Of a DNA stretch of 64,000 nucleotides, positions 36,736-57,800 are shown one piece after another. Both the position numbers and the translations under genes were made by a program. Origin of the DNA: Promethearchaeota archaeon (GTDB lineage: Archaea; Asgardarchaeota; Lokiarchaeia; Sigyniarchaeales; SOKP01); the NCBI GenBank assembly GCA_030599585.1, contig JAUVNS010000014.1:42028-106027 (forward strand). The letters are read 5' to 3'. The notes beneath the pieces are model-generated. The model saw only the letters and a program-made list of their open reading frames with translations. It had not been told where the DNA came from and ran no database searches. Position 1 is the first letter of the stretch, and each line of letters begins with the position of its first letter.

Positions 36736-36909
36736 ACTCAAACAATGATAAAATCTTATAAGTATACTTAAAATTAAAGATTAAAAAATATAATTGTATG
36801 AAATTTTTATATCTTGTGAACTTTTTACCTTCCTTTAGCCTATTATTGCTATTTTAAATTGCGAAAAATCCTAAGGTTCATATATAATTTTATTGAGAGA
36901 TTAAATCAG

Positions 36910-38865: not shown

Positions 38866-39031
38866 ATAACCACTTTTACTTAATATGTTTGAAAGATTTG
38901 GATTAATCCTTTAAAAATACAATTAATATATTAAGTAATTAAGGCAATTACAATTTTAAATATAATTTATTTTGTTTACTTCAGTTATTTATCATATTTT
39001 CAGAAATTATAAATTGTAAGATTTAGCGATT

Positions 39032-39826
39032 ATGCCGAAAGTTAAAGTAAATACCATGAATATTTATTATGAGATTTATGGTACAGGTCCTCCTTTATTG
39101 ATGATCCTTGGTTTAGGAGCTAATATCACATGGTGGGGAAATTATTTTATAAAAGGATTAGCAGATTATTTCAAAGTGATTATGTTTGATAATAGAGGAA
39201 CGGGGCAATCTAGCAATCCTAAATCGCAATATACCGTCAGAACATTAGCAGATGATGCATATGGATTATTAAAAGCTTTAAACATTGAAAAACCTTTTAT
39301 TTTTGGGCATTCAATGGGAGGAGGTATTGCTCAGGAATTAATACTTCAGTATAATGGAATGTCTAGACTGATTTTATGTAGTTCTTCTTGCGGGGGATCC
39401 AAATCTATTTTAGCGTCTCCTGAAGTTTTACAAATAATTAATAAAGAGAGATCGGGGAGAGTTCCATTTGAAATTGCCAAGGAAAGCCTAAATTTATTTT
39501 ATTCACCTGAATTTATGAAAAATAACCCTAAGATCATTGATTACGCTGTTCAGAACATGGCGAAAAGTCAAATGCTTCCAAAAAATTACGAATGGCAAAG
39601 GGACGCAATTAGATCGTTTAAGACCTGCGACAGATTAAAAAATATGAAAATTCCAACTTTAATCATGCACGGTGCGAAAGATATTTTGGTCCCCCCACAA
39701 AACGCCGAAATTCTTGCTGACTTAATTTCTAACGCCCATATAAAGATGTTTGCTGAAAGTGCTCATGCTCCTTATGTGGAAGAACCGGATGCAGTTATTC
39801 ACGAAATAGTCGAATTCCTCCAATAA
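39032..39826 (+). CDS. Alpha/beta hydrolase
   Basis: DNRGTGQS, GHSMGG, HGAKD, SAH. Confidence 0.92.
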   Translation: MPKVKVNTMNIYYEIYGTGPPLLMILGLGANITWWGNYFIKGLADYFKVIMFDNRGTGQSSNPKSQYTVRTLADDAYGLLKALNIEKPFIFGHSMGGGIAQELILQYNGMSRLILCSSSCGGSKSILASPEVLQIINKERSGRVPFEIAKESLNLFYSPEFMKNNPKIIDYAVQNMAKSQMLPKNYEWQRDAIRSFKTCDRLKNMKIPTLIMHGAKDILVPPQNAEILADLISNAHIKMFAESAHAPYVEEPDAVIHEIVEFLQ

Positions 39827-39929
39827 TATCTCTATTAAATAGTATACTACTAATTTTTATACAAGAAATAATAATATTATATTAAGCTTAATTTGATGTA
39901 AATTAAAAAAGCGTTTTCAAGGTAGAAAA

Positions 39930-40682
39930 ATGTCAAATGACAAAGAAAAAGAAAAAGACAAAGAAAAAGACAAAGAGGAAATTCCTCGAAGAAAGGTTCA
40001 GACAATTACCGTTTATCAATTTAATGATGAAATAGGAGATTTTGAAGAACTTATCTTGGATCCTGATATTAAGCTTAAAGATTTATTGGATGATGATTTT
40101 ATCCTCATGTTTGTTGATCCCAAGCATTTCAGAGTTTGGTTGTGGCATGGATTTAACACGACAACTCGAATGAAATTTATAGCAGCTAAAATGTCTCCAC
40201 CCATTAGAGATAATCATGGATTCGCCTTTAAAATTACCGCTGTCGACCAAGATAACGAAACACATGGCTTCTTAGTTATGATAGGGTTAGAAGAAGAAAT
40301 AGATTACGATCAAGTCCAAACTGGACCCGAATATGAAGGTACAGAAGAAGATCTTGAATTTCTGAAAACCATGTCTCGAGAAAAGATACTTTTACGCCTC
40401 GAAAAAGTCGGAGTTCCGGAAGGATTCGAACGAAAAATTGTTATCGTTAAAAATCAAATCTATGGATATCGGGAATACGATCGAAATTACTTAGGCTCAG
40501 TAATTAAAGAAAGGCAACTCTTCCCTCTAAAAGAAGAGATTGAGGACGGAACTTATTTGGCTGATAATTATATACCTAGGATGCATTTTTCGTTCAACAA
40601 TGTAGTCTTAACAGAGTTATTAGAACCATTAGAAATAGATGATAGTATAAAAAAGAAATCATTGAAAGATTTAGAGGCTTGA
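39930..40682 (+). CDS. Single-domain gelsolin with C-terminal extension (1DGelX-like actin regulator)
   Basis: LDDDFILMFVD...VWLWHG...KFIAAK...VDQDNETHGF matches the gelsolin-domain pattern, followed by about 120 further residues. Confidence 0.75.
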   Translation: MSNDKEKEKDKEKDKEEIPRRKVQTITVYQFNDEIGDFEELILDPDIKLKDLLDDDFILMFVDPKHFRVWLWHGFNTTTRMKFIAAKMSPPIRDNHGFAFKITAVDQDNETHGFLVMIGLEEEIDYDQVQTGPEYEGTEEDLEFLKTMSREKILLRLEKVGVPEGFERKIVIVKNQIYGYREYDRNYLGSVIKERQLFPLKEEIEDGTYLADNYIPRMHFSFNNVVLTELLEPLEIDDSIKKKSLKDLEA

Positions 40683-40684
40683 AA

Positions 40685-40822
40685 ATGAGTACAAACATTA
40701 AACGCAGAACCTACGTAAAAAAAAGGCAGAAAAGGCTTACAAGAAATTCATTAATATTAATTTCTATACTTTTTCTTAGTGTTATAATAAGTATTGTCGT
40801 AACACTTATCGCATTACCTTAA
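40685..40822 (+). CDS. 45-aa tail-anchored membrane microprotein
   Basis: MSTNIKRRTYVKKRQKRLTRNSLILISILFLSVIISIVVTLIALP*; ATG 2 nt after the gelsolin stop. Confidence 0.65.
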   Translation: MSTNIKRRTYVKKRQKRLTRNSLILISILFLSVIISIVVTLIALP

Positions 40823-40891
40823 TTTTTGTTAGGAATTGTTACCTTCATTCGTAGATTAATTAAAGCACTCTAAATTATTTTTTCTTGAAGA

Positions 40892-41617
40892 ATGAAAATA
40901 AAACGAATGGATATAATTTTCTTTATTATTTTAGGGACAATTACAGTAATCTCTATAGATTTTATACTAAATGAATCTCATCGAGCTATTATTGAAAACA
41001 TAGGAAGTATACCCCCATTTCAAGACCTCGCTTCTGGGTTATTAATAACATTTTTAGTATGTTTGATAGGAAATCTATTACCCATACCAACGCCTTATAC
41101 ATTTGTGGTATGTTTTAGTTCCTTACCCTTTTTACAACTGAATCTTTTCATTCCTATTGTTGTCGCTTTTATTGCTAGTTTAGGATGCATGATTGGAGAA
41201 ATTGGGGGATATATTGTAGGTAGAGGGGCTTCTTCATTTATATCTGAAGACCGTAGTCAGAATCTGAAGAAATACCAACTATTCTTAATAGAGCATCCAA
41301 GGACCGCACCCCTTTTAATTTTTATATTTGGTCTTACACCCTTAAATGATGATTTCATAACAATACCTCTTGGAATCATTAAATATAGTTTTCTAAAGAC
41401 AATTTTTTGGGTTTGGTTGGGCAAATTGGGTTTGATGCTGATTTTTTCCTATAATTTATTAAGTATTTGTAGCCTCTTAGGAGGAGATAGCTGGTTTATT
41501 TCAATTGTTTCAATGTATTTGATTACTATTCTACTGTATTTAATGATAAAAATAGACTTATTAGATTTTTATAACAAACTCGTAGAGAAGGTTCATAAAA
41601 TAAAGGAGAAAAGCTAA
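40892..41617 (+). CDS. DedA/VTT (SNARE-associated) membrane protein
   Basis: PIPTPY, GCMIGEIGGYIVGRG, FGLTPLNDD, LGK motifs. Confidence 0.82.
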   Translation: MKIKRMDIIFFIILGTITVISIDFILNESHRAIIENIGSIPPFQDLASGLLITFLVCLIGNLLPIPTPYTFVVCFSSLPFLQLNLFIPIVVAFIASLGCMIGEIGGYIVGRGASSFISEDRSQNLKKYQLFLIEHPRTAPLLIFIFGLTPLNDDFITIPLGIIKYSFLKTIFWVWLGKLGLMLIFSYNLLSICSLLGGDSWFISIVSMYLITILLYLMIKIDLLDFYNKLVEKVHKIKEKS

Positions 41618-41646
41618 TTTCTCCGTATACTAATAATTTGAACGAT

Positions 41647-41754
41647 TTATTTTTCTTCTCTAATTTCTATACCGTCAGGCAAAGTAACACTATCAACCAT
41701 TAATCCTTCTGCTTTCCGATAATCGTCAAAAGTTCTGGCTTCAACTTTTTTCAA
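41647..41754 (-). pseudogene. Orphan C-terminal fragment of a second MttB-like paralogue
   Basis: LKKVEARTFDDYRKAEGLMVDSVTLPDGIEIREEK* aligns with the MttB tail IKEIEARPLKLYMDAEGISGGSVNITGTEISLEKS but lies in a different frame. Confidence 0.7.
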
Positions 41755-43267
41755 GTGAAATCTCGGTACCAGTAATATTCACAGAACCGCCACTAATGCC
41801 TTCAGCATCCATATATAGTTTAAGGGGGCGTGCTTCAATTTCTTTTATTAGAGCCAATAATTGAGTATCTACATCCTTAGCAAGTTCATAGGGTTGATAA
41901 TCCGCTAACACTTGATCAACTTTCGTCCTAGCTCGCTCAATAATGTCTTTCGAACCTTTTTTTTTCCAAGTAGATCGTCTACCTCGGTCAATCAATTTAG
42001 GGAAATAAAGTTCTTTATGCATATACTTTCTTGTGTGAGATTCTGCAAGGAAATTTTTCCCTTTTTGTTCGCTAGTTGCTACATTTTTGATTATATCAAT
42101 CGCTATTGTATCTTCATTAACATTAATACCTTCCATTGCTCGTTTTACTAAGCCAGCAAGTTCATCGTCAATTACTAATAGTTCTAACGCTTCTGCTAAA
42201 GATGATTCATAAGTACCCGCACAGGTTATATAATTAATTCCAGCTTGTGCTGCTAGTGACATAGTGGAAAAACGCTCAAAACCATTTTGTACATCAAAAC
42301 ATTTTGATTCAGTAACTCCACCAGGACCACGTGAAGGAATGTTAAAATAACGCGCAATTTGAGCTATAGCAATGGTTATTAAGCTTGATTCTATAGCCCC
42401 TAAGGCAGAATTTCCAGAGCGCATATCAGTGGCACATGAAACTGTACCAAAGAATACTGGACTTATTGGACTGAAAACTTGAGCTAGAATTATACCACCA
42501 ATTATCTCGGCACATGTCTGAGCTAATAAACCGGCTAATGTAACTGGGGCAGTTGTGCCTGCAAGAGCTTCTGGAGCTACAATTACAGGTTGCTTATATT
42601 TTGCAAAGACTTCTAAACCATTTGTCATAAGTTTTGGTAATTGTAAAGGACTTGTAGGATTCATAAAGCCAACTAATCGCGGTCGTTTAATTAAGTCTTC
42701 TTCACTCCCAACTATAAGAGATGTAATATTCATCATATCTTGGCTTGCTAACTTCCCAAGGCAGCCCAGTCCATAAGGTTTCTTAGTATTCTTCGCCCAT
42801 TGATACAAACAATGTGCATGAACCGCTGTAAACTTAACATCACTGGGCCAAACATCAATATGAGAGCAGTTTATGTTCTTAAGGCTATCCACTACACGGA
42901 TTTGCTGTATTGTATCGGCTAAAACTGATTTCTTTAATTTATTTTTTCCTAAAGGATCATAGATTCTAACTGGAGTTCCGATCGTGGCAAATTGAGTCGT
43001 TTTAGTATTGACTTCAAAATTAAATGATCCATCGGGACCATGTAATTTAAATGATTCTGGTACTAATTTTAGCAAGTCTTTGGTAACATTCTCGGGAAAT
43101 TTTACAAAAGATGATAAATTATCAAGAATAGCTCCTTTTTCTTCACATCTCTTACGAGATTTCTCATCATCTATTTTAATTCCGATTATTTCGAGGATTC
43201 TTAGAGCTGAGCTAGTAATTGCTTCGATTTCTTCTTTGGAAAGAACTTCCAACTTTTTTAACTTCAT
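41741..43267 (-). CDS. mttB: Non-pyrrolysine MttB-superfamily (trimethylamine methyltransferase-like) corrinoid methyltransferase
   Basis: SPLQL, AGTTAPVTLAG, DMRSG, GGVTESKCFDVQNGFE, LVIDDE; no in-frame TAG. Confidence 0.9.
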   Translation of the reverse strand: MKLKKLEVLSKEEIEAITSSALRILEIIGIKIDDEKSRKRCEEKGAILDNLSSFVKFPENVTKDLLKLVPESFKLHGPDGSFNFEVNTKTTQFATIGTPVRIYDPLGKNKLKKSVLADTIQQIRVVDSLKNINCSHIDVWPSDVKFTAVHAHCLYQWAKNTKKPYGLGCLGKLASQDMMNITSLIVGSEEDLIKRPRLVGFMNPTSPLQLPKLMTNGLEVFAKYKQPVIVAPEALAGTTAPVTLAGLLAQTCAEIIGGIILAQVFSPISPVFFGTVSCATDMRSGNSALGAIESSLITIAIAQIARYFNIPSRGPGGVTESKCFDVQNGFERFSTMSLAAQAGINYITCAGTYESSLAEALELLVIDDELAGLVKRAMEGINVNEDTIAIDIIKNVATSEQKGKNFLAESHTRKYMHKELYFPKLIDRGRRSTWKKKGSKDIIERARTKVDQVLADYQPYELAKDVDTQLLALIKEIEARPLKLYMDAEGISGGSVNITGTEISLEKS

Positions 43268-43286
43268 ATTATTCTCTTCTCTTAGT

Positions 43287-43937
43287 TTATTCTGATATAT
43301 TTAATAATTTCTTTACTAAAGCAATCGTTTCAATTGCATCATCGGCCCATCCATCAGCGCCAATATTTTCAGCCCAATCATCTGAAGTAGGAGATCCCCC
43401 AACGATCACTTTATATTTATCTCTCAACCCTCTCTTCTCAAGCGCCTCTATAACTTGCTTCTGAAAGACCATCGACATTGTTAGAAGAGAGGATAATCCT
43501 ATGATATCAGCACCTATTTCTTCTGCTTTTGAAATGAATTGATCTGCTGTTACCTCAACTCCGAGGTTATACACTTCAAATCCATTCGAAAATAAAAATG
43601 AGCCGACTAAATCCTTCCCAATACTATGTACATCACTTTCTACCGTCCCTATAACGATTTTTCCCATAGATTTCTTTTCTTCTCCACTAGCTCTAATAGC
43701 AGGATCTAGAATCTCATCAATTACTGCTTTTACAGTTTCAGCAGAGCCTATGAGTTCTGGAAGAAATATTTCTTCCTCTTCGAACTGATCTCCTACAAAT
43801 TTCATAATATCACCTATGATTTTCAACAACCCAGAAGCCGTTGCTTCGTTACTTTTTAGGAGAGTTTGACAATATTCTTTCAAGTCCTCTGTCTCCCATT
43901 CAACAACGAATTTTTTTATTTTATCTTTAATAGACAC
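43287..43937 (-). CDS. Cognate corrinoid (B12-binding) protein, MttC-like
   Basis: IFLPEL, GTVESDVHSIGK (DxHxxG), SSLLT, VGG. Confidence 0.93.
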   Translation of the reverse strand: MSIKDKIKKFVVEWETEDLKEYCQTLLKSNEATASGLLKIIGDIMKFVGDQFEEEEIFLPELIGSAETVKAVIDEILDPAIRASGEEKKSMGKIVIGTVESDVHSIGKDLVGSFLFSNGFEVYNLGVEVTADQFISKAEEIGADIIGLSSLLTMSMVFQKQVIEALEKRGLRDKYKVIVGGSPTSDDWAENIGADGWADDAIETIALVKKLLNISE

Positions 43938-44066
43938 TTTCTTTACAACTTGTAAATTATATTTTTTGTATTATGATATAATCATTGGGAAAAAAAGTTT
44001 TTCATAAATCATAGTTTTATTATAATAAAAATATCCACCATCTTTAATTTCGAGAAGGAATGAATA

Positions 44067-45350
44067 ATGAATGACGAGAACAGACCAAAAACAATGGATC
44101 AAAAAAATAAAGAACTACGAGAAAAATGGGATAAATTACATTTTGATTCGCAACAAGGAAGAGCCGGTGAAGACCCATACCCTACAACGTCTGATAGCTT
44201 AAGAATCCCACTATATGCAACAAAATCATATGCATATTCTTCCTTAACAGAATTATTAAAAAGCCATTATTTTTACTCGAGAACAGAAAATCCAACATTA
44301 TATGCTTTAGATCAGAAGCTTGCCACGCTTCACGGTGGCGAATCAGCTGTTTCTGTAGCTTCTGGAATGGCTGCAGTACATTTAGCGTGCTCGAGCGTAC
44401 TACAGCAACGCGTAGATAGAGCTAGACCAAAAAAATTAAAAGTATTACTACCTCAAACCAATCCCGATTATATTCCAAATGTCATTATCCATAATAATCA
44501 ATACACAGGGGTGTATCGATTGTTGACAAAAATCTATTCACAAATCGGAGTAATGACTAAAATCGTTGATCTAACAAATCTGTCAGAATTAAAAAACGCT
44601 ATCGATGAAAGCACAAAATTGGTTTTTGTGGAAACTCCATCTAACCCAAATTTAGACATATTAGATATTCAAGGATGCGCTGATCTAATTCACGAAGTAA
44701 ATGGAAAATGTATCGTTGATAATACATTTGCTTCCCCAGCACTACAAAAACCTTTGAAGTTCGGAGCTGATTTAGTAGTAGAAAGTTTAACGAAATATGT
44801 CAATGGACATGGCGATACATTAGGTGGTGTGATAATTGGTCCAAAAATAGAATTGCAAAACATTAGATATTTTTGGTTAGAAACGCAAGGAGCCGTGATG
44901 AATCCCTTTAGTGCTTGGCTTATTCTGAGGGGTTGTAGAACGCTTAGTTTAAGGATGGAGCGCCATTGTTCAAACGCATTGAAAATAGCTGACTATTTAG
45001 AATCGCATCCAAAAGTAGTAAAAGTGATATATCCGGGTTTAAAATCTCACCCGAACCATGAATTAGCTAAGAAGCAAATGAAAGCATTCGGAGGTATGAT
45101 TGGATTTGAATTAGAGACAGTAGAGAAATGTTACAAGTTTATAGATTTATTAAAACTAATTAAAGTTGGTGTTTCCCTCGGAGATACTACGTCTTTAATT
45201 GAATATACATCAGTTATGACGGGAATCGATCTCGCATCGTGGGAAAAACGAAGAATGAACATGTCAAACACGCACTTCCGATTTTCAATAGGTTTAGAAG
45301 ATTCTAACGACTTAATTAATGATTTAGAACAAGCATTAAAAAAAATATAA
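44067..45350 (+). CDS. PLP-dependent trans-sulfuration enzyme (methionine gamma-lyase / cystathionine gamma-lyase family)
   Basis: YSRTENPT, SGMAA, ETPSNP, DNTFASP, SLTKYVNGHGD (PLP Lys), VSLGD, RFSIGLE. Confidence 0.9.
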   Translation: MNDENRPKTMDQKNKELREKWDKLHFDSQQGRAGEDPYPTTSDSLRIPLYATKSYAYSSLTELLKSHYFYSRTENPTLYALDQKLATLHGGESAVSVASGMAAVHLACSSVLQQRVDRARPKKLKVLLPQTNPDYIPNVIIHNNQYTGVYRLLTKIYSQIGVMTKIVDLTNLSELKNAIDESTKLVFVETPSNPNLDILDIQGCADLIHEVNGKCIVDNTFASPALQKPLKFGADLVVESLTKYVNGHGDTLGGVIIGPKIELQNIRYFWLETQGAVMNPFSAWLILRGCRTLSLRMERHCSNALKIADYLESHPKVVKVIYPGLKSHPNHELAKKQMKAFGGMIGFELETVEKCYKFIDLLKLIKVGVSLGDTTSLIEYTSVMTGIDLASWEKRRMNMSNTHFRFSIGLEDSNDLINDLEQALKKI

Positions 45351-46859: not shown

Positions 46860-47072
46860 TTACGCTCGAGAATATTTTTCTACGATGTAATTTTGTAAAG
46901 ACCACGCATATTTTTCAAGATTTAAGAGTAACACTTTCTGTTGAATTTCTCTTAAATACGGTACATCTAAATCCCCAAATAAATGTTCTAAATGTTCAAT
47001 CGTATCAAAAATATTTACGATAGTTTTCCAATCTCTTTCCCAATCCTTATCTTGTAGTTCTAATTGATTCAT
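46860..47072 (-). CDS. Small helical hypothetical protein (70 aa)
   Basis: Clean ATG-initiated ORF with amphipathic helices, co-oriented downstream of the 7TM-longin genes. Confidence 0.7.
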   Translation of the reverse strand: MNQLELQDKDWERDWKTIVNIFDTIEHLEHLFGDLDVPYLREIQQKVLLLNLEKYAWSLQNYIVEKYSRA

Positions 47073-47187
47073 TATATGAGATAATATATTTTTAATTGTT
47101 TTTATTGGTTCTATATCAATTCAATAAGAACTTAGATATAAAAATGTTTAGATATCTCGGATTTAGTAATTTAAATGTAGATATTGA

Positions 47188-48336
47188 TTATTTATACAAA
47201 TGAAAATGTTTCTCGACTAATTCTTTGATATCGATAAATTCAGAAATATTGATTAACCGGTTTAAATCTTGAATATCTAACAGTTTATTTTTATATTTAC
47301 TATTGAAGTCTTTTGAGAAACCTAACATAAGGTTTTCTACAATTTCATTTTTTTGATTAGTATTAACCACCAAAGCATACCCGTAATCATTTTCGTACCT
47401 AACAACAATATCAGATTTCTTTGTTTGGATCACATCGATTTTATCAGTTTTATCGATAAACTCATTAAGAATATGGTTTAAACCAATAAGAATGGTGCCC
47501 CATCTTGCTGATTCAATTTTGTTATCTGTTGTATCACCGAAATTATATGAATAAAGCACGATCCCAGATTTATGGTAAATATTTACTGAGTATATTCTGT
47601 TTGGTAATATAAAAAACATCTCTGGTTTCTTAATAAGCATAATATAAAAAGCAAATGATGAGACCCACAAGATTACGATGTATATTTCTCTATAAATGGT
47701 TTCTTTAACTGTTATGTAAAGCAACAGCATAATCACAGAAATTGAATAAACCAGTGTATTCAACAAAAGGGTTGAACCTTCTTGTTTATTTTTTGTTTTG
47801 TTGTATATTATGGCCGCGCTATAGAGAAAATTAATCGTAATGAACAATTCGAAGAGAATGAATACAATACTGGTGGCTATATTAAATTCAAAATATATGT
47901 TAGAAGGATCCATTACTGAAAACATGGGTGGAAGTGGACCATTGAAAATTAGAGTCATTGAATCAGGAGTCGCCAAAGCGCCAACCAATAGCCCAAAAAG
48001 AAGAGTAAAATAAATGAAGGGAAATGGTTTAATTTTTTTGTATTGATTAAAAAAAGAATAAATTATGGATGTAAATAATAAGGTTATAAAACCAGTTACT
48101 AATGATATTTTCCACAGTAAGATATTAATATCATAAGATATAAAAATAACTACTGAAAATATAAATAATGTAGAGTATAGAAGTCCCGCTATAAGTGTAT
48201 TTGTTATATTTAAGGACGCTATTAAAATTGTACTATATTCATTACGATGTCGAAAAATATGAATTACTGTATAAGAGCTTAAGATTAAGATGAGGATATA
48301 ACCAACTATTAAAGAAGTTGAGAGCGTGTAATTCAT
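47188..48336 (-). CDS. Seven-TM membrane protein with C-terminal longin-like domain (copy 1)
   Basis: Seven hydrophobic segments, then KKPEMF...IYHKSGIVLYSYNF...GTILIGLNHILNEF. Confidence 0.75.
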   Translation of the reverse strand: MNYTLSTSLIVGYILILILSSYTVIHIFRHRNEYSTILIASLNITNTLIAGLLYSTLFIFSVVIFISYDINILLWKISLVTGFITLLFTSIIYSFFNQYKKIKPFPFIYFTLLFGLLVGALATPDSMTLIFNGPLPPMFSVMDPSNIYFEFNIATSIVFILFELFITINFLYSAAIIYNKTKNKQEGSTLLLNTLVYSISVIMLLLYITVKETIYREIYIVILWVSSFAFYIMLIKKPEMFFILPNRIYSVNIYHKSGIVLYSYNFGDTTDNKIESARWGTILIGLNHILNEFIDKTDKIDVIQTKKSDIVVRYENDYGYALVVNTNQKNEIVENLMLGFSKDFNSKYKNKLLDIQDLNRLINISEFIDIKELVEKHFHLYK

Positions 48337-48529
48337 AATTTAATGTATAAAAAATTATCTTCCTATTAACTTATTAAATACGAAAACCGGTGAGATTTCG
48401 TAGAGGCATAGAATAATAATATACCTATTTAAATAAAGAAGAAACACTCATTTTTAAGAATTACTCAACAACATTCAAAGTATTATCCCGATATATTTAA
48501 TCTACTCTGCTATATTTAATTTATATTAC

Positions 48530-49630
48530 TTAAGTCTCTGTTAAATAGTGGCTAAAATTTTTGATGACAAGTTTATAAGCATTTTTAAACTTAGAAACAT
48601 CAATTAAACGGTTTAAATTTTGTAAGTTTTCTTCATTAATTTTGGAAAAATCTTGCATAAATTTCTCTACAGCAGATTCGAGAATGTCATTTTTGTGTTT
48701 GGCAATTAATAAGGCAGCATAACCTAATTCTGTATTAAAATTAAAAACTACCGCACGGTCTTTCAATTTTATATGAGTTATCTGAGCTTCTACATTAGAT
48801 AGGTTAGCTAAGATATGACTGATCCCAATTAGAATGCTTCCTTTTAATAGACTCTCATCAACTTCTTCTCTTGTCTGAAAATTAAAAGAATAAAGTAAAA
48901 TCCCTGACTTATGGAATATAATTAAATCATATATTTTATTTGTTATTACCGCAAATAAATTAGGCTTTTTAATGATAACAACGAGAAAAAATCCAATACT
49001 AATAAGATACACTATAGAATGAAATAACTTAAAGTAGGGATTTAAAGAAATTAGATACAAACTGTAAAGAAAAATGTTTAAGCTAAAAAGAAACAGTAAG
49101 ATATAATTAAATTTACCTAATTTCTTGTCAGCAAAATTATGATATCCCTTTATTTGGATAACCCAAGAAAACAATATGGTACAAAAATTGAATAGAATAA
49201 TTGATGTCAGCAATCCTATGTTATTAAATAAGTAGAAATATTCAAAACCTCTCTGGATAACAGTAAAAGAATCAGGAACTAAGAGTAAACTTAGAATAAT
49301 TCCTCCTATAAAAATATAAATCAACGAAGGTAGATATCTTACTTTACTGTCTTTGTTTAACTCGAAGTTATGCATTGAGGCAAACATTCCTATTGAAAAA
49401 TTTCTTGTAATAATTGAAATATACCATATTATCAATGCAAAGGGGGTATCGAAAAAATTTTCTGCTGATAAATTAAATGAAATAAAGTAGGTGATTTCGC
49501 TTATGAAGTATATAATAATTACAGCAAAAAATCCAACTCTAGTTTCATATTTCCCTCTATTTAATAATACATAAATGACACCAAATACGAAGATTATAAC
49601 AATAATACTAATAAATATGCTTGCAATCAT
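48530..49630 (-). CDS. Seven-TM membrane protein with C-terminal longin-like domain (copy 2)
   Basis: Seven hydrophobic segments, then KKPNLF...IFHKSGILLYSFNF...GSILIGISHILANL. Confidence 0.75.
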   Translation of the reverse strand: MIASIFISIIVIIFVFGVIYVLLNRGKYETRVGFFAVIIIYFISEITYFISFNLSAENFFDTPFALIIWYISIITRNFSIGMFASMHNFELNKDSKVRYLPSLIYIFIGGIILSLLLVPDSFTVIQRGFEYFYLFNNIGLLTSIILFNFCTILFSWVIQIKGYHNFADKKLGKFNYILLFLFSLNIFLYSLYLISLNPYFKLFHSIVYLISIGFFLVVIIKKPNLFAVITNKIYDLIIFHKSGILLYSFNFQTREEVDESLLKGSILIGISHILANLSNVEAQITHIKLKDRAVVFNFNTELGYAALLIAKHKNDILESAVEKFMQDFSKINEENLQNLNRLIDVSKFKNAYKLVIKNFSHYLTET

Positions 49631-49893: not shown

Positions 49894-51834
49894 ATGAGCG
49901 ATTTTCAACAATTCCTATCAGATAAGAGAATAATTACAAACCTAATAAAACATTATAGAATCGATTTAAAAGATAAAGAAATAAACGATTTTATCCATAA
50001 TTCGATCGAACATTTAACTAAGATTGATTCAAAAGAAAGTAAACATGAAAAAGAAAAGGATGATCTTAAAAATGAACTGGATTCCATAGCACAGTTCTAC
50101 GAAAAAACGGTCCCTCATAGCCAAAGAAAAACAACGGGCGAATTTTTTACTCCGATTCAAATAGTAGATTACATATTAAAAAGTGTAGGATATACAGTCC
50201 GGCACGATATTGAATATAAGAAATTAATAGATTTAAGTTGTGGATCAGGGAGTTTTATAATTCGAGCAATTAACATTTTAACAAAAAAACTAATAACACT
50301 CACCAATTCAAAAGAAACTGCAGAGTTGTCTGCTAAACAGGCGGAACAAATCATTAACAGCGTTAAAGATAATATATTCGGTATTGACATAAATCCAATT
50401 GCTTGTATTTTATGCCAAATCAACATCTACTTTACCCTCTTTAACCTCATTAAAATCATTATAAAAAATAACAAAGATTACGATGTACCCATTTTTAATA
50501 TTGTCAACAATGATGCGCTCCAACTTAATTTTAATAATGAATACGACTATGTAGTAGGAAACCCTCCTTATATATTCATTCGAGCCATTCCGCAAGAGCG
50601 TAGAAATTTCATTGAAAAACTACCCTTGGAGACAAACAAGGGCCAGTATGACTATTATCAGATCTTTATTGAATTAGGAATAAAATCATTAAAAAAAAAC
50701 GGGGTACTCGGATACATTATCCCGGATTCTCTACTCGCGTTATCAAATCGCAAGATTCTAAGAAAATATATTTATGACTCGACTAAGATAATCGAAATTT
50801 ATTATAGCGGCCCTCAATTCGATAAACCTGTCGTTTCAAATATCATTCTTACTTTGGAAAAAGAATCAGATGAAATAAAAAGAAAAAATAATCAAATTAA
50901 AATTAAATTTCCATTAAACCAATCTCAAGCGGATAAGATAATCTTTCAAAATTTAATAAAAACCTGGGATTACGAATTTTTAATAAATTTAAACGAAACA
51001 GATATCAGAATTCTTGATCATCTCAATACTAATTTCCCCCGGCTAGAAGAGTTAATAGAAAGCTCTGAGTTTGATATTAGATTGAGCAGAGGTGTTGAAT
51101 TAGGAAAAGAGGGTAAGGTCATTTTTTGTGATAACTGTAATAAATATTATCCCCTTCCAAGTAAAGATTTAAAATGCCCGGAGTGTATGTCAATTCTCAA
51201 AAATAATTCTCTAGAAAAGATAGTATTAGATGAGATTCCAGATGGACTTGAATCCGATTTCAGGCCGTTTATTTATTCAATGAATAGATACATCGTAAAT
51301 GAATTAAAATATATAAATATGACCAAACAGGGCATTAACTACAAGGACCTGGAGATATACAAAAATCGAATCGTAATCCGGCAGTTAAGCCAAGATAATC
51401 TGATTTGCGCAAGTTATGATGATAATTCCGTAACTTCTCAATCGTTCTACAATCTAAAAATTAAGAGTTCTTCAGTTCCAGAATTTAATAATTTATATGT
51501 CTTGGGTCTTTTAAATTCAAGGCTTTTATCTTATTTCTTTGTTAAATCGTTTGGTTCTTACAAAAAATTGTTTCCACGAATTCTTATAGAAAAACTAAGG
51601 AAATTGCCATTAAAAGTGCCTAACACTACCGTTGAAAAGAAATTAGCTCAAAATTTAACTGATAACATAAAGAAAATTCTTAAAAGTATAAAGTCTAATA
51701 AAAACTCAATACCAAATCTTCAAAGAGTTTCAGATTCACTCGTATTTGAGTTATATCACATAAATGATACCGATCGTAATTACATCATTAACTTTATAGA
51801 AATTTTAAGAAATAATTTAAAAAAAAGTTATTAA
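49894..51834 (+). CDS. N6-adenine DNA methyltransferase, gamma class (Eco57I/TaqI-like), no adjacent endonuclease
   Basis: GEFFTP (motif X), DLSCGSGSF (I), VGNPPY (IV); TaqI-C-like tail YVLGLLNSRLLSYFF. Confidence 0.9.
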   Translation: MSDFQQFLSDKRIITNLIKHYRIDLKDKEINDFIHNSIEHLTKIDSKESKHEKEKDDLKNELDSIAQFYEKTVPHSQRKTTGEFFTPIQIVDYILKSVGYTVRHDIEYKKLIDLSCGSGSFIIRAINILTKKLITLTNSKETAELSAKQAEQIINSVKDNIFGIDINPIACILCQINIYFTLFNLIKIIIKNNKDYDVPIFNIVNNDALQLNFNNEYDYVVGNPPYIFIRAIPQERRNFIEKLPLETNKGQYDYYQIFIELGIKSLKKNGVLGYIIPDSLLALSNRKILRKYIYDSTKIIEIYYSGPQFDKPVVSNIILTLEKESDEIKRKNNQIKIKFPLNQSQADKIIFQNLIKTWDYEFLINLNETDIRILDHLNTNFPRLEELIESSEFDIRLSRGVELGKEGKVIFCDNCNKYYPLPSKDLKCPECMSILKNNSLEKIVLDEIPDGLESDFRPFIYSMNRYIVNELKYINMTKQGINYKDLEIYKNRIVIRQLSQDNLICASYDDNSVTSQSFYNLKIKSSSVPEFNNLYVLGLLNSRLLSYFFVKSFGSYKKLFPRILIEKLRKLPLKVPNTTVEKKLAQNLTDNIKKILKSIKSNKNSIPNLQRVSDSLVFELYHINDTDRNYIINFIEILRNNLKKSY

Positions 51835-51848
51835 AATTATTTGATAAG

Positions 51849-54800
51849 TTAGGTTAAAGCATCCTTTACTTTTCCAATAACTTTGGCATAATAGCTTATT
51901 GCGCTTTTTAAATTGCCATCGTCCCATAGCTCTTGAGCCTTATCAAAATAAACTAAAGCTTTATCGAGATGTCTATTACTTTCCCCTAATAGTAATGATT
52001 CAGCTTCAAGTATTTTCAGATATGTAACATCATCAATATTGCTCATGAGCGATTCAATTATACTTGAAGTGGAAAGGCCATTATCTTCAGCATCTAACAA
52101 ATTTACGACAACTTCAATAAGTTTATAAAATGAGCTTGCAAGTAGACTTTTGTTTGCTTGATCAATAGCGAGTAATAACATTTGTTCGGCTTGTTCTAAA
52201 TCAAATAAAGCCTGGTCTGGAATTGGATATGACATTAAATCTTGAATTTCAGCTAGGCGATCATAAAGATCACTAACAAACGATTCAACAATTAATTTAG
52301 TTCTCGCTTTCATTATATTTCTGAGCGAATTTTTGAAATACTTCACTGCTTCATCATATTCCTCCGATTCAATCATCAAAAGTGCTGTATTGTAATCATC
52401 TATAGCTCGCAAAATAAACTTATTATCTTCACCAACGATATCAATTGTCCTTTCCATGACAAATTCAACAATATATCGAGTTAGAAAAACTATAGAATCA
52501 GTGATTTCTTGAGTTTTGGCACCCAATTCTTCAGCATCCATCAAGAATCCAACTGCGTCTTTCACTTTGTCGTATGCTTCATAGATCATTCCAGATTCAA
52601 ACTTCTCTTTTGCTTGAGTCAAAGAGAGAATTGCTTGCTCAATTAAATGCTGAGAACTTTCTGGAACACCAAGAGTGATTAAAATATCAATGATTATTTC
52701 AAGATAATCACTTGGTAGAAAGAAATCTTGACCATCGTCCCATATAGGATAATTATCTATACTACCTGCTAAACCCATGATATTATATGGCGTATCTCCA
52801 ATACCATCGTCATTGGCATCCACACCAGTGTAGTCGTCCCAGTAATTACCAAGCGTCCCGTTATCCCAGAAAATGTTCATGCCGTCATCAATTGCATTAA
52901 AATCAGTATTTCCAATAAAAACATTATTATAAATATAATATTCATTATAAGATGGTGTATTAACATGAATTCCCAGTGTATTATTGATAATCAGATTCTC
53001 AGTTATTATATTATATCTGGAGTTATCGCTACAGATCCATATTCCAGTGTGTTGTGAACTTATAATATTCTCCCGTATTATATTGTAACTACTATTTCTT
53101 TCAATATAAAACCCATAAAAACCGTAATGGTCATCTGGAACGGTAATTATGTTTCCAGAAATGAAGTTATAATGGCTACCAGTCAAATCAATCCCTTCTC
53201 CTTCTATCAAAATGTTTGATAAGATAGTATTATTATCACTCTCCGCTAATACAATACCGGTTCCCCACCATGAATGATTAAGATAATTCCCACTTATTAA
53301 AACGTTATTCGAATGAGATAGTATGATTCCCCCTGAAGCAAATTGATGGATTGTATTATTTAATATTGAGATTTTACTATAGCAATATCTTATAATTATA
53401 CCATAATCATCATTTGTACGGATTTCATTATCTGAAACCTCAGTATCAAAACATTCATGCAAGTAAATGCCTACTTTACGATGTTCTTCCATAAAATTCC
53501 CTGTTATAAGAGATTCTCCACAAGAATAAATTGCGATTCCATTAAAATTGTCAGATAAGCAATTATTGGAGATAGTGTTGTTGATTCCATTTTCTATGTA
53601 AATCCCATCTCCATTATTATTGCTAATGTAGTTTCCAGTAATGATATTATTATCACTCCATTCTAAATAGATCCCTGAGTTTATGTTGTTAGATATGATA
53701 TTATTTGAAATAATATTATAATGACAATAATGCATGAATATTCCCTCTATTTGGTTATTCTCAATAGTATTTCCCAATATTTCAGTACCATTAACAACTT
53801 CTAGAATAATTCCCTCGCCATTATTACATATGGTATTATTGGATACTAAACTGTAAGAAAAAATGTCGTGAAGTACTAAACTTCCGTATTCATTATTACA
53901 AATATTATTACCAATAATGAAATAATAATCTCCTTCACTTGCTACAGTTGCTTCGAAATTACCAGTAATAATATTTTCTATGATGTGAATATCGAAACAC
54001 CATTCAAATTGAAGTGTTGCTCCATAGTAATTGTCAGTCACATTGTTTCCTTTAAATATTATATGTTGACAATATTCTATGTTTACACCACTATCATTAT
54101 TAGTTATTGTATTATTTAAGATTTGGATATTCTCGCAATGATACATTTCTATTCCGTATTCATTATAAGAAAGATAATTATTGATCAAAATATCATTCCA
54201 AGAATTGTCTATATATATCGCTATTCTATTATTAGATATAACATTATTTGTTAGATTACTATCCTTAGAGTTTTCTACATAGATACCAATGTCATTTTTC
54301 GTTATTGTGTTATCTAAGATTGTAATTATACTACTATTAACCAAATACAATCCAACTGGGTCAGCGTATGGCAAGTAATCATAGTTGTTTATTATATTAT
54401 CCCTAATAATAATATCATGACATTTTTGAACAGATATGCTTCTAACATCACAATTATTTATACTATTCAGCATGATAACAGTGCTATTAGTATCTTCCAG
54501 TACTATCGAGTAATCGTTTCGTTTCAAATCGTTATTTGAAATTTTGATAAGAGTACAATCTTCCAAATATATTCCTATACCATGATTGGTATAAGCAAAA
54601 ATATGATATCCAACCATATTATCTTCAATTGTGATATCGCTACAGTTCTTCAGATAAATTCCAGCTTTATGATTGCTACTTATTGCATTTTTTTTAATCT
54701 CAAAGTTTTGACAATGCTCTAAGTATATACCGCTTAATCCATTAGCAAAGAAACTATTTTCTGTTAAAATGTTTCCTTGGGATTCTTGACTGAAATAGAA

Positions 54801-57800
54801 TCCGTTTCCGTTGTTAAAATAGACATTATTTCTAGACAATATATTGTAATTGCATTCAATTAATAAAATCCCTCCTTTATTGTTAGATAATTCATTGTCG
54901 TGAATATTATTATAATCACAATTTTCAAGGATAAATCCAGCAGAGTATCTATTATGTTCTATTATATTACCAGACACATTGTTATTATGAGAACTATAAA
55001 AGTAAAAGCCATCATACCAATTATAGATCGCTTTATTATTCACAACAGTATTATCATTTGAATAATCAAACCGTAAACCACCATTCCAATTATAATTAAA
55101 CTCGTTTCCTATAATCGAATTATTTTCGCAGTATGTAAGCCGCATTCCTCTTGTAGTTTCAAAACAAATGTTATCTATTATCTTGGCATTTTTCACATAA
55201 TTTAAATAAATTCCGATTGAAGCAGAATAATGACCGGAATGTGTGTAAAATGTGCAATTTCTTATTATGAAGTACGCTTCTGAATTGAAAATCTGGATGC
55301 AACGGGGACCTCCTAGTCCTGATCTGACAACAATATTTTCAATAATGTAAGGATCATTCCATGTGCCTGAACCACTAGCCCACCCATCACTTACAGCATC
55401 ACTCCACAACATTCCAGGAGATAATTCATCAATTTTAAGTTGAGTATATACAATATTAATCGATAAAATACTAAAATTCTCTAGATTACCCGCTTTATCT
55501 ATTGATCTGTAGTGTATTGTAATTTTCCCATTATACGGAATATTAAATGGATTAGTATAAGTATACCAATTAATTCCATCATAGCTATATTCAGAATAGG
55601 CAATGTTTGAGATATTGTCAACAGCTAAGAGGGAAATCAACACATCTGTTCGATACCAGTTATAAATACATGGATTCTGACTTACACTGTATTCAGTCTC
55701 AGGAAAAGTTTTATCAATCTTTACGATTTCACTCTTAATTATTTCGGTATTCCCAGCTTCGTCATAAGATTTATATGCAAAAGTAAATTCACCCTCAAAA
55801 TCGATATAAAATGGTCCGATATAAGCGATCCAATCACTTCCATTAATATTATAATGCGTGAATATAGTTTCTGAGTAAATGTCTGAAGCATCTAAAGAAA
55901 CATAAACATCCGATGTGTACCATTCATTTTGTCCCATCGTACCGATTAAGTTGATTGTCGTGGTCGGAGTTGATTTGTCGATTTTGATAATTTCGACTTT
56001 TGTGAACTCTTCATTACCAGTTAAATCAAATGATCTATAGTAAAAGTCTGTTATTCCTTGATCACCTATGCTTAATGGTGTGGAATATAAATTCCAATTA
56101 ACTCCATCATAGCTATATTCACTGTAATTTAAACCAGATATAGAATCTGTTGCAGAAAGTGATACCAAAACATCTGAAACATACCAGTTATTTGATCCAA
56201 GTGTTCCACTTAAATTAATCGTTGTATTTGGAGGTGTTTTATCAATTTTAAAGGATTCTATTAAGATTTCCTCAGATATTCCGGCATTATCAATAGAATA
56301 GAAGTGTAAGGTGATTAATCCTTCTGTAAGTATGTCAAATGGTTCCGTATATAGATTCCAATTAAGTCCATTCAAACTATAATAAGTATTGAATACTTCT
56401 GAGTAGATATCAACCGATTCAAGTGTGACCTGAACATCTGATACATACCAGTTGTCATTACCAATTATTCCTTCTAAACTTATAGTAGTTGTTGGTGCTG
56501 TTGTATCAATTTTGATTAACTTAATCTTTGCTTCTTCCTCATTACCAGCAATATCAAACGATCTATAGTAAAATTCTGTAATTCCTTGTTCATCTATATT
56601 TATCGATATAGTATACAAATTCCAATAAACTCCATCATAACTATATTCGCTGAAATTTAGCCCTGATGTAATATCTAGTGCTGAAAGAGTTATTGATATA
56701 TCTGAAGTATACCACTCCGCATTTCCTGGTGTTCCACTCACGTTTATAGTCGTCGTGGGACTGGTTCTATCTATTTTCAATGAAACTACAGAATATTGTT
56801 CGATTTTTCCCATGTTATCCACTGATCTGTAATAAAGTGTTGCGCTCCCATCCTCAGTAAGGTGTATTACACCAGTATAGGTAAACCATGTATCTCCATC
56901 ATAACTATAATTCGTATAGGCGACTCCAGATGCATCATCTATTGCGGTTAATATAATATTTACAGTTGAAGTATACCATCCATTTTGACCTTGAACGCCC
57001 TCGATACTAATTGTTGTAATTGGTGGGAGAAAATCATCTTGACCATCATCCCAAGTAGGAAAGTTATCTATACTCCCAGCTGTACCTGGAATATTATATG
57101 GAATATCTCCAAACCCATCGTCGTTCAGGTCAACTCCACTATAGTCGTCCCAATAATTACCGAAAATTCCATTGTCCCAGTTATTGTTAGTTCCATCATC
57201 AACTGCATTGCTTGTTCCACTACCTCTGACATCATTCTTGTATATTAGTGTATTTTCACTTATCCAAATATTAATGCCGAACTGTTCGTTATTGTAAACA
57301 ATATTATCCGTAATAATATTATCAGAACTATGATATAAAATCAAAATTCCTGTGTAGATGTTATAAGAGGCTGTATTATTAATGATTGTATTGTGTTCTC
57401 CTAAGTACATTCGTATTCCAACATAATTAAAATTCGCAATATTTCCAGAAATGAAACTATAATCACCCACAACTATTCCATATTCAGAATTGTGATTTGC
57501 GATGTTATCCAAAACATAACTATTAATCGTTTCACCTAATTGTATCCCGTAGCCGTTATAGACTGCTATATTTCCAGAAATATTAATATTATTTGAATAT
57601 AGTGCTACAATTCCTCTAAAATTGTAAGAAACATTGTTCATCATAACTTTATTAATTCCGCAATTTTGAATATAAATTCCTTCACTGTTATAATTCGCTA
57701 TATTTCCGACGATTAGATTATTATTACTATTCATGTACAATTTAATTCCAGCGTAGCTATTGTTTGAGCAGTTGTTATTGATAATAACACCATTATTCGT

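Follow-up and report, generated by a model that had tools for sequence, protein, structure and literature searches.

Two adjoining genes, here called A and B, lie on the minus strand of a 64,000-nucleotide stretch of contig JAUVNS010000014.1 from a Promethearchaeota archaeon; the whole of this stretch is referred to below as the window. A and B are well supported as paralogues within a family of receptor-like membrane proteins that extends across the Asgard archaea. In each protein a seven-helix membrane domain with the fold of G-protein-coupled receptors (GPCRs), predicted to have its N-terminus outside and its C-terminus inside the cell, is fused to a cytoplasmic longin domain, an architecture that the structural models make secure. 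Both folds are known, and what is new is their widespread fusion. A fuller reading, in which the variable helical bundle would act as input and the constant longin tail as an output that engages a small GTPase, is put forward tentatively and is given somewhat less than an even chance.

Three co-oriented minus-strand open reading frames (ORFs), A, B and C, are present in the ORF list of the window where a first-pass annotation of this DNA had reported them. That annotation described A and B as paralogues with seven hydrophobic segments each, followed by the tripeptide KKP and a soluble domain of roughly 130 residues with shared motifs. The paralogy, the orientation, the segments and the motifs are all found in the two proteins: KKP follows the last hydrophobic segment, and HKSGI.LYS.NF, G.ILIG..HIL, GYA and F..DF are common to both. 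The soluble domain is likewise present after KKP, but it is slightly longer than was stated, measuring 146-147 residues from KKP to the C-terminus in A and B. Aligned over their full length the two proteins are 29% identical (E 1e-35). The nearest database relatives of B are 86-91% identical to it and carry source names such as Promethearchaeota archaeon and Lokiarchaeota archaeon. Comparisons with related loci refer throughout to 20 orthologous loci, all from one taxonomic family, that were taken from a profile-search listing. The features of the pair are as follows.

48530..49630, minus strand: gene A, 366 residues; seven-transmembrane (7TM) domain plus longin; upstream member of the tandem, A clade in the family tree; seven hydrophobic segments
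48971..49630, minus strand: membrane domain of A, residues 1-220; seven helices with the N-terminus predicted outside, from hydropathy, loop charges and the transmembrane (TM) profile (E 7e-55)
48533..48970, minus strand: tail of A, residues 221-366; predicted cytoplasmic longin fold starting at KKP, from a tail-only AlphaFold model, Foldseek and VIA
48337..48529, minus strand: A-B spacer, 193 bp (30-205 bp in 19 related loci)
47188..48336, minus strand: gene B, 382 residues; 7TM domain plus longin; downstream member of the tandem, B clade; full-length model
47632..48336, minus strand: membrane domain of B, residues 1-235; seven helices in a GPCR-like fold, with a beta hairpin between helices 4 and 5
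47191..47631, minus strand: tail of B, residues 236-382; predicted cytoplasmic longin fold, from the secondary structure of the model, Foldseek and a sub-threshold match to Intu_longin_1

The membrane domain

Hydropathy places seven membrane segments in A and seven in B. The full length of B was modelled with AlphaFold2 on a 63-sequence family alignment, giving a mean predicted local distance difference test (pLDDT) of 87.3 and a predicted template-modelling score (pTM) of 0.82. The helices of the model comprise residues 4-29, 37-62, 68-97, 104-121, 153-180, 184-210 and 213-236, and the loop between helices 4 and 5 contains a small beta hairpin. In the VIA structure search, which covers 48161 representative solved chains, the 50 best matches of the B model are without exception GPCRs (classes A and C, adhesion and Frizzled) or designed GPCR-like folds. 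These alignments have Z scores of 14.2-18.4 and include 199-227 residues within model residues 1-242, covering helices 1 to 7. Helical bundles score high by default in a structure search, and the matches are to be read as likeness of fold and not as homology.

Sequence comparison adds little to the structural likeness. DRY, NPxxY and CWxP are class motifs of GPCRs; NPxxY and CWxP occur in 0/63 members each, and a DRY-like triplet anywhere in the sequence occurs in 3/63. No GPCR family of Pfam is matched at E<=0.1 among the 63 members, and the best sequence match to a receptor in the Protein Data Bank (PDB) is to an adrenergic-receptor fusion construct, at E 0.046. The models thus suggest that the membrane half and the GPCRs share the same fold, with homology not proven. 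The Pfam matches that the membrane domain does give at E<=0.1 are to CBP_BcsF, TM_PetC and MscS_TM, in one member each of the 63.

Topology was predicted from the charge of the loops. Among the 63 aligned members, lysine plus arginine averages 7.3 in the predicted inner loops and 1.2 in the N-terminus and outer loops, and the inner count is the higher in 63/63 members, although the outer set covers twice as many alignment columns. Because this excess is seen in every member, the N-terminus is predicted to lie outside and the C-terminus, with the tail, in the cytoplasm. The cytoplasmic C-terminus first proposed for these 7TM proteins is thus upheld as a prediction, and none of the members has the charge pattern of an extracellular tail.

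Three other classes of seven-helix protein were considered and rejected. The HisKA_7TM model of histidine kinase sensors has no match at E<=10 anywhere in the genome, nor any at E<=0.1 among the 63 members; the automatic name of the nearest Atlas cluster is "Histidine kinase N-terminal 7TM region". Pfam finds no HisKA or HATPase domain in A, in B or among the 63 members, and output domains of the kinase, cyclase or HD type are likewise absent, in agreement with the earlier statement that a histidine kinase output is lacking. A microbial rhodopsin is rejected since a lysine anywhere in the core of helix 7 is present in just 11/63 members, so that a retinal-binding lysine is not conserved; no microbial rhodopsin stands among the 50 top structural matches, an absence that by itself says little. 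Ion channels of the insect chemoreceptor type (7TMIC) have the N-terminus inside and the C-terminus outside, according to the available portion of the text of 10.1101/2023.08.30.555482, and the topology predicted here is the opposite in 63/63 members.

The longin tail

In the B model the tail consists of strands at residues 248-255 and 260-265, a helix at 272-291, strands at 302-304, 309-315 and 320-326, and helices at 331-347 and 349-354, with more beyond. A tail-only AlphaFold model of A (pLDDT 82.1) has an identical order of secondary structure. The order in both models, strand-strand-helix-strand-strand-strand-helix-helix, is that of longin domains. Foldseek returned 14 matches of the A tail at E<=0.001, and all are of longin type: the sigma and mu subunits of the adaptor complexes AP-1 and AP-2, COPI zeta, and Fuzzy and Inturned of CPLANE. 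Further down are SR-alpha, the TRAPP subunits Bet5, Trs23 and sedlin, Mon1-Ccz1, Ykt6 and Sec22b. The Foldseek matches of B include AP-2 sigma, Bet5, Mon1-Ccz1 and SR-alpha.

The VIA search gave a concordant result. Ranks 1-35 of the A tail are longin-type, with Z 9.1-13.7, root-mean-square deviation (rmsd) 2.7-4.6 and 112-133 residues aligned, the longin-bearing chain of each structure being presumed in part from entry titles. The best match is 7q3d_C (Z 13.7, rmsd 2.7, 126 residues), and the longin matches include CPLANE Fuzzy, the SRX domain of SR-alpha, Bet5, Mon1-Ccz1, AP sigma and mu, and the Lokiarchaeota structure 8yqg. Chains of the roadblock/LC7 type appear only from rank 36, at Z 7.7-9.0. 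The longin fold that had been proposed for the tails is therefore recovered by both searches.

By sequence the tails are harder to place. Intu_longin_1 matches B at E 0.0015 with 19.2 bits, against a curated cut-off of 23.7, and A matches no family at E<=1. At E<=0.1, Intu_longin_1 is matched by 8 of the 63 members, Sybindin by 3, and Fuz_longin_1 and SRP-alpha_N by 1 each. In the profile searches of the PDB the top sequence match is Trs23, though it stays marginal (E 0.029 and 0.21). Weak as they are, these signals point the same way as the models. The tail is therefore a longin in its fold and a member of no curated sequence family.

The conserved positions of the tail are glycine, phenylalanine, proline and hydrophobic residues. 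A catalytic arginine of the NPRL2/FLCN type, as used by GTPase-activating proteins (GAPs), was sought in alignments of 63 and 51 sequences, and no arginine of the tail is invariant or nearly so in either; nor does any other conserved charged residue point to a catalytic site of a GAP or a guanine nucleotide exchange factor. Because the tail has no conserved catalytic residue, scaffolding or recruitment is likelier than direct GAP chemistry.

Divergence and distribution of the family

The first-pass annotation had held the membrane parts to be more diverged than the soluble tails, and this proves to be a general property of the family. Identity between A and B in the window is 19% in the membrane halves and 38% in the tails. 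Across all 63 members the means are 19.0% and 34.1%, the tail being the more conserved part in 1921/1953 pairs. The same is seen within the A clade (means of 24.4% and 46.8%; 433/435 pairs) and within the B clade (40.7% and 61.1%; 325/325 pairs). The features described so far are not due to chance, as the size of the family shows: at 90% identity it comprises 237 clusters, and at 50% it has 117 representatives.

The distribution search covered genomes of the phylum. At E<=1e-10 the family profile has matches in 61/61 sampled genomes of the class, between 2 and 32 in each; at E<=1e-8 it has matches in 133/151 sampled genomes of the phylum, where many are full-length and come from other taxonomic families. 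Expansion of the family by lineage-specific duplication is well supported. The genome from which the window comes has five fused copies, namely the window pair, a single copy on contig C52 and a second tandem pair, on contig C21, whose genes are 22 bp apart; it has 17 ORFs with the tail domain in all.

Close orthologues of A and B were not found in two genomes of the same genus, G011 and G020, where the family profile finds nothing better than E 1e-16 to 1e-19. The probable cause is a gap in the assembly and not loss of the genes; in G011 the neighbouring roadblock-Ras gene described below lies 2.2 kb from the start of its contig.

Stand-alone relatives of the membrane domain also occur. Locus L008, on contig C22 (224379-225959, minus strand), holds two adjoining seven-helix genes of 241 and 236 residues that have no longin tail, and one of these twins matches the family membrane-domain profile at E 7e-9. 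A soluble ORF of 197 residues that belongs to no Pfam family stands directly upstream of them. The GTPase searches of the genome listed no match on contig C22.

The tail, for its part, is also found behind TPR repeats, and in one database relative, P0231 (633 residues), an MFS_1 domain (E 1.9e-9) precedes a stretch matching residues 181-343 of gene A, which comprise its final two helices and the longin tail. The P0231 fusion speaks for an alternative in which A and B would be transport-linked proteins, with the bundle a channel or carrier or the regulator of one and the longin a regulatory appendage, in the manner of nutrient "transceptors". An MFS_2 transporter gene that follows gene C in the window and in 5/20 related loci would fit this alternative as well. 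The same neighbour is absent, however, from 15/20 related loci, none of the 50 solved chains that match the membrane domain best is a transporter or channel, and Pfam detects no transporter family among the 63 members at E<=0.1. A transport-linked role is regarded as very unlikely.

Origin and pairing of A and B

In a tree of 149 family members, the A-type proteins (49 rows) and the B-type proteins (35 rows) form sister clades whose union has a support of 98, and the outgroup of the two includes the single copy of genus g4. Because A and B are sister clades with a single-copy outgroup, the pair appears from the tree to be an old tandem duplication, one that would predate the genera of the 19 loci in which it is found. 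Both genes are present in 19/20 related loci, and in 19/19 of these A comes first and B directly after it, 30-205 bp away. Identity to the window genes across these loci is 34-61% for A and 35-52% for B. The C21 pair and a pair in genome G010 are independent tandem duplications in the tree. Other Asgard families, too, contain tandem pairs.

The chance that A and B act as a heteromer through their longin domains is judged to be about even; the sister clades and the retained adjacency, both of them evolutionary evidence, fit a heteromer without proving one. It is quite possible, if not quite an even bet, that the architecture is as described and that no A-B heteromer forms, the tandem duplicates being adjacent by descent and acting separately, probably as homodimers with different inputs. 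Such an arrangement opposes only the pairing part of the proposed reading and is compatible with the rest. Most family members are unpaired, among them the single-copy lineage g4, the C52 copy and most distant loci, so the fold can do its work with no paralogue as partner. A spacer of 193 bp, moreover, leaves room for separate promoters, and the title of entry 8yqg describes a dimer of one Lokiarchaeota protein. What tells against separate action is that both copies are kept, adjacent and in the same order, in 19/19 loci over several genera and with spacers down to 30 bp; that the tails of the two clades differ in their invariant residues, as at W279 of B, where A has a conserved lysine; and that tandem pairs arose independently at least three times. 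Were A and B to form a heteromer, the unpaired and single-copy relatives would act as homodimers.

Small-GTPase genes near family members

The genome encodes 86 small-GTPase ORFs. Its G-alpha matches in Pfam number 10, all weak, with 0 above the cut-off, and all fall on small-GTPase-like genes. In 15/20 orthologous loci a gene of about 325 residues, called here roadblock-Ras, is found 2.5-3 kb from A, beyond the conserved and divergently transcribed methyltransferase gene described in the last section. In its product a GTPase domain of the Ras family is joined to an N-terminus that weakly resembles roadblock (MAPKK1_Int, below threshold). The orthologue in the present genome is on contig C41 (35133-36119) and is 74% identical to the query locus and up to 85% identical to another.

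Within the genome, 3/17 ORFs with the tail domain are located within 500 bp of a GTPase ORF, compared with 4.1% of 2837 background ORFs. The Ras gene at 102221-102772 of contig C21 is 28 bp from the C21 pair and convergent with it; this pair and the TPR-longin gene of locus L012, named next, belong to the ORFs so counted. Two other tail-bearing genes deserve mention. Locus L012 (C21, 107154-109713, minus strand) encodes a TPR-repeat protein that ends in a longin-type tail and is 170 bp from a same-strand Ras gene, and locus L011 (C24, 97425-100423, minus strand) encodes a 760-residue protein with the tail, 168 bp from another Ras gene. These two genes are better candidates for longin-GTPase operons than the window locus.

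The same question was put to distant family genes in two sets, the first of 42 ORFs that match both the tail and the TM profiles, and the second of 44 tail matches of at least 300 residues. The counts for the 42-gene set, the 44-gene set and the background, in that order, are these.

GTPase gene within 500 bp: 4/42; 2/44; background 4.1%
GTPase gene within 1 kb: 5/42; 5/44; background 6.0%
GTPase gene within 2 kb: 9/42; 10/44; background 9.2%

Pooled, a GTPase gene is within 2 kb of 19/86 (22%) distant family genes against the background of 9.2%, about a two-fold excess. Left out of the 42-gene set were 7 tail-only ORFs, of which five are of full-length size (343-367 residues), one of 555 residues is in L054 and one of 247 residues is in L087; one of the five, at 4989-6062 of L083, is 41 bp from a GTPase gene. 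The association of the family with GTPase genes is loose. It is compatible with coupling and provides no evidence of an operon.

These counts bear on an alternative in which A and B would be membrane-anchored longin scaffolds that neither sense anything nor have a GTPase partner. The helices would then anchor or sort the protein, and the tail would recruit a partner of the coat, SNARE, ESCRT or cytoskeleton type, as the longins of Sec22, VAMP7 and Ykt6 and of the small AP and COPI subunits recruit such partners. This alternative is in keeping with the best Foldseek matches of the tail, which are AP-1 and AP-2 sigma and COPI zeta followed by the SNARE longins. It also fits the lack of a GTPase gene at the locus and within 2 kb of 67/86 distant family genes, and the nearly wholly hydrophobic character of the conserved tail residues, which is like that of a binding scaffold. 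A plain anchor, however, needs neither a conserved seven-helix bundle of GPCR type nor a rapidly diversifying multi-copy family, and the roughly two-fold excess of nearby GTPase genes would be left over. The AP and COPI longins themselves, moreover, work in Arf-driven complexes. A scaffold of this kind is considered unlikely, but with some real claim to attention.

Proposed mode of action

In the reading preferred here, of receptor-like proteins that act on a small GTPase, the bundle would be the variable input and may sense a ligand or the state of the membrane; this part is ascribed to it because of its fast evolution and its many paralogues. The longin tail would be the constant output, a dimerising platform that would hold a small GTPase of the Ras, Arf or Rag type, or a regulator of one, at the membrane. 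This part is suggested by what characterised longins do, since every characterised longin, to our knowledge, is a dimerising platform for a small GTPase or its regulators. A change in the bundle would alter where, or whether, the GTPase is engaged.

A number of observations weigh against so full a reading. With respect to the protein itself, a GPCR-like fold seen in models would alone be no proof of a sensing function, no sequence match to a longin family reaches its curated threshold, and no charged residue of the tail is invariant in the 63- and 51-sequence alignments. The tail is fused to an MFS transporter and to TPR repeats too, and so is not specific to 7TM sensors. With respect to the genes nearby, no small-GTPase gene is found in the window or beside A and B, the nearest on the contig being about 61 kb off. 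The 15/20 count for roadblock-Ras comes from one taxonomic family, with the methyltransferase gene in between and transcription divergent from A. The two same-genus genomes that lack close A and B orthologues keep the roadblock-Ras orthologue, and hence give no signal of co-loss. In the wider survey, the 67/86 distant genes with no GTPase gene within 2 kb are the majority, most adjoining GTPase genes are convergent or on the opposite strand and are not co-transcribed, many of the cases are orthologous and thus not independent, and the background rate of GTPase genes is that of this genome only.

A stricter form of the reading makes A and B an obligate heteromeric receptor, in which a change in the bundles would be passed to a longin heterodimer that loads and unloads, or captures and releases, a GTPase of the Ras, Arf or Rag type. 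This is thought improbable. If it were true, the pair would be an archaeal receptor-to-G-protein switch built from a longin and a small GTPase instead of a heterotrimeric G protein, and a possible forerunner of the link in eukaryotes between a GPCR-like protein, a longin complex and Rag or Rab GTPases.

The wider interest of the family is that a membrane input, something that feeds signals into the Asgard small GTPases, has been missing, and that the proteins described here are a concrete and testable candidate for it. If the coupling holds, the logic of receptor to GTPase would predate eukaryotes and would have operated without heterotrimeric G proteins. If it fails, a widespread and unannotated family of membrane-anchored longins would still be worth naming. 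Matched pairs are on hand in A with B and in the C21 pair with its neighbouring Ras gene.

Relation to known systems

The longin fold of the tail is shared with Mon1-Ccz1, the guanine nucleotide exchange factor of Rab7, with the Fuzzy-Inturned pair of CPLANE (Rab23) and with Bet5 and Trs23 of TRAPP (Rab1), at VIA Z scores of 11-13.7 over 125-133 residues. The weak Pfam matches of the A/B family, to Intu_longin_1, Fuz_longin_1 and Sybindin, fall on families of the same types. In being a paralogous pair, A and B also resemble these heterodimers. Mon1-Ccz1, CPLANE and TRAPP, by contrast, are soluble and multi-longin and are recruited to membranes, whereas A and B each have one longin fused to a seven-helix domain.

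The SRX domain of SR-alpha, from the receptor of the signal recognition particle (SRP), is among the best matches of the tail (2go5_1, Z 12.1; 5ck3_A, Z 11.4). In the SRP receptor a longin is held at the membrane together with a small Arf-like GTPase, SR-beta. There it is the GTPase that is membrane-anchored and the longin that is soluble, while in A and B the longin is anchored and there is no NG domain.

On the membrane side, the 7TM domains of class C GPCRs (GABA-B, GPR156 and mGlu) have the same helix arrangement as B, with the N-terminus out and the C-terminus in, and align at Z 15-16 over 218-227 residues. GPCRs differ in that their output is a heterotrimeric G protein, and not a covalently attached longin as in A and B. 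The HisKA_7TM and 7TMR-DISM sensors share with A and B the layout of a seven-helix input and a cytoplasmic output. The nearest eukaryotic analogue, in logic and not by comparison of homology, is LYCHOS (GPR155), which has a GPCR-like membrane domain and signals through NPRL2 and NPRL3, the longins of GATOR1, which regulates Rag GTPases. In LYCHOS, unlike A and B, the longins are separate subunits that are bound via a loop, and the membrane protein also has transporter-like and DEP domains.

Among Asgard proteins, a Lokiarchaeota Roadblock-Longin protein (8yqg_B) has the same fold as the A tail, at Z 10.2. The roadblock and longin proteins of Asgard archaea, including 8yqg and those of MK-D1 and Thorarchaeota, are soluble or fused to GTPase domains, whereas A and B are membrane-fused.

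The expansion in Asgard archaea of longin and roadblock proteins and of small GTPases is described in the portions available of 10.1101/2020.10.19.343400 and PMC10933270. The first of these, by Liu et al., counts, in the portion available, 130 Roadblock/longin asCOGs and describes NPRL2-like longins fused to two-component domains; "7TM" and "transmembrane" have 0 occurrences in its main text (10.1101/2020.10.19.343400). The main text of the second deals with Asgard fusions of GTPase, longin and roadblock domains and reports that Asgard proteins were not targeted to membranes in HeLa cells; "transmembrane", "membrane-spanning" and "7TM" have 0 occurrences there (PMC10933270). A 2026 preprint (PMC13734099) lists, in the text available, "7TM proteins" among Asgard-eukaryote structural clusters, as one of the families that Eme et al. 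2023 or Liu et al. 2021 had already reported, and mentions four G-protein-coupled-receptor clusters, one of them class C, for which that text gives no detail. No description of a 7TM-longin fusion was found in the literature on Asgard longin and roadblock proteins, GPCRs and 7TM proteins; the supplements of 10.1101/2020.10.19.343400 and PMC13734099 may list the family.

Gene C and the surrounding genes

The window has a G+C content of about 31%. A sigma-70 promoter scan gave 21 sites where 26.2 are expected, and no terminators were found, the sigma-70 model being uninformative for an archaeon. An NCBIfam search of the locus proteins gave nothing meaningful. Two further features flank the pair.

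46860..47072, minus strand: gene C, 70 residues, acidic; a conserved small protein 3' of B, tied to A and B by position only
49894..51834, plus strand: methyltransferase of the Eco57I/N6_Mtase type (Pfam); divergent from A; a conserved neighbour

Gene C is separated from B by a 115-bp spacer. The 70-residue ORF that had been noted after the pair is a real conserved gene, with 402 homologous clusters at E<=0.001, all unnamed; it matches no Pfam or NCBIfam family and has no usable Atlas match. It stands 3' of B in 15/20 related loci with 64-79% identity, which is above the values for A and B over the same loci, and in some loci an RDD-family gene is inserted between B and C.

An orthologue of the methyltransferase gene is divergent from A in 18/20 related loci, at 48-56% identity. 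The enzyme, of the Eco57I/N6_Mtase/TaqI_C type, behaves like the product of a core gene and not like part of a mobile restriction-modification element.

Beyond the methyltransferase gene, an ORF of 4000 residues with many repeated units occupies 51849-63851 of the window (minus strand), to the end of contig C1. On contig C41 another giant ORF, of at least 2401 residues and with a signal-peptide-like start, extends over 36886-44089 (plus strand) and runs off the contig end beside the roadblock-Ras orthologue. In relatives the methyltransferase and roadblock-Ras genes directly adjoin, and in genus g3 an ORF of 1004-1078 residues stands between them. Because giant ORFs are found here where the relatives have direct adjacency or, in g3, the shorter ORF, the junction of the two genes seems to be a place where genes for giant surface proteins have been inserted repeatedly. 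Contigs C1 and C41 may, at a guess, be neighbours.

On the other side of the pair, at 41741-45350 of the window, is an uninterrupted MttB-family methyltransferase (508 residues) together with a B12-binding corrinoid protein and a Cys/Met pyridoxal phosphate (PLP) enzyme. The composition of this block suggests methyl transfer of the methylated-amine or betaine type. Several relatives keep the block in synteny with A, B and C.

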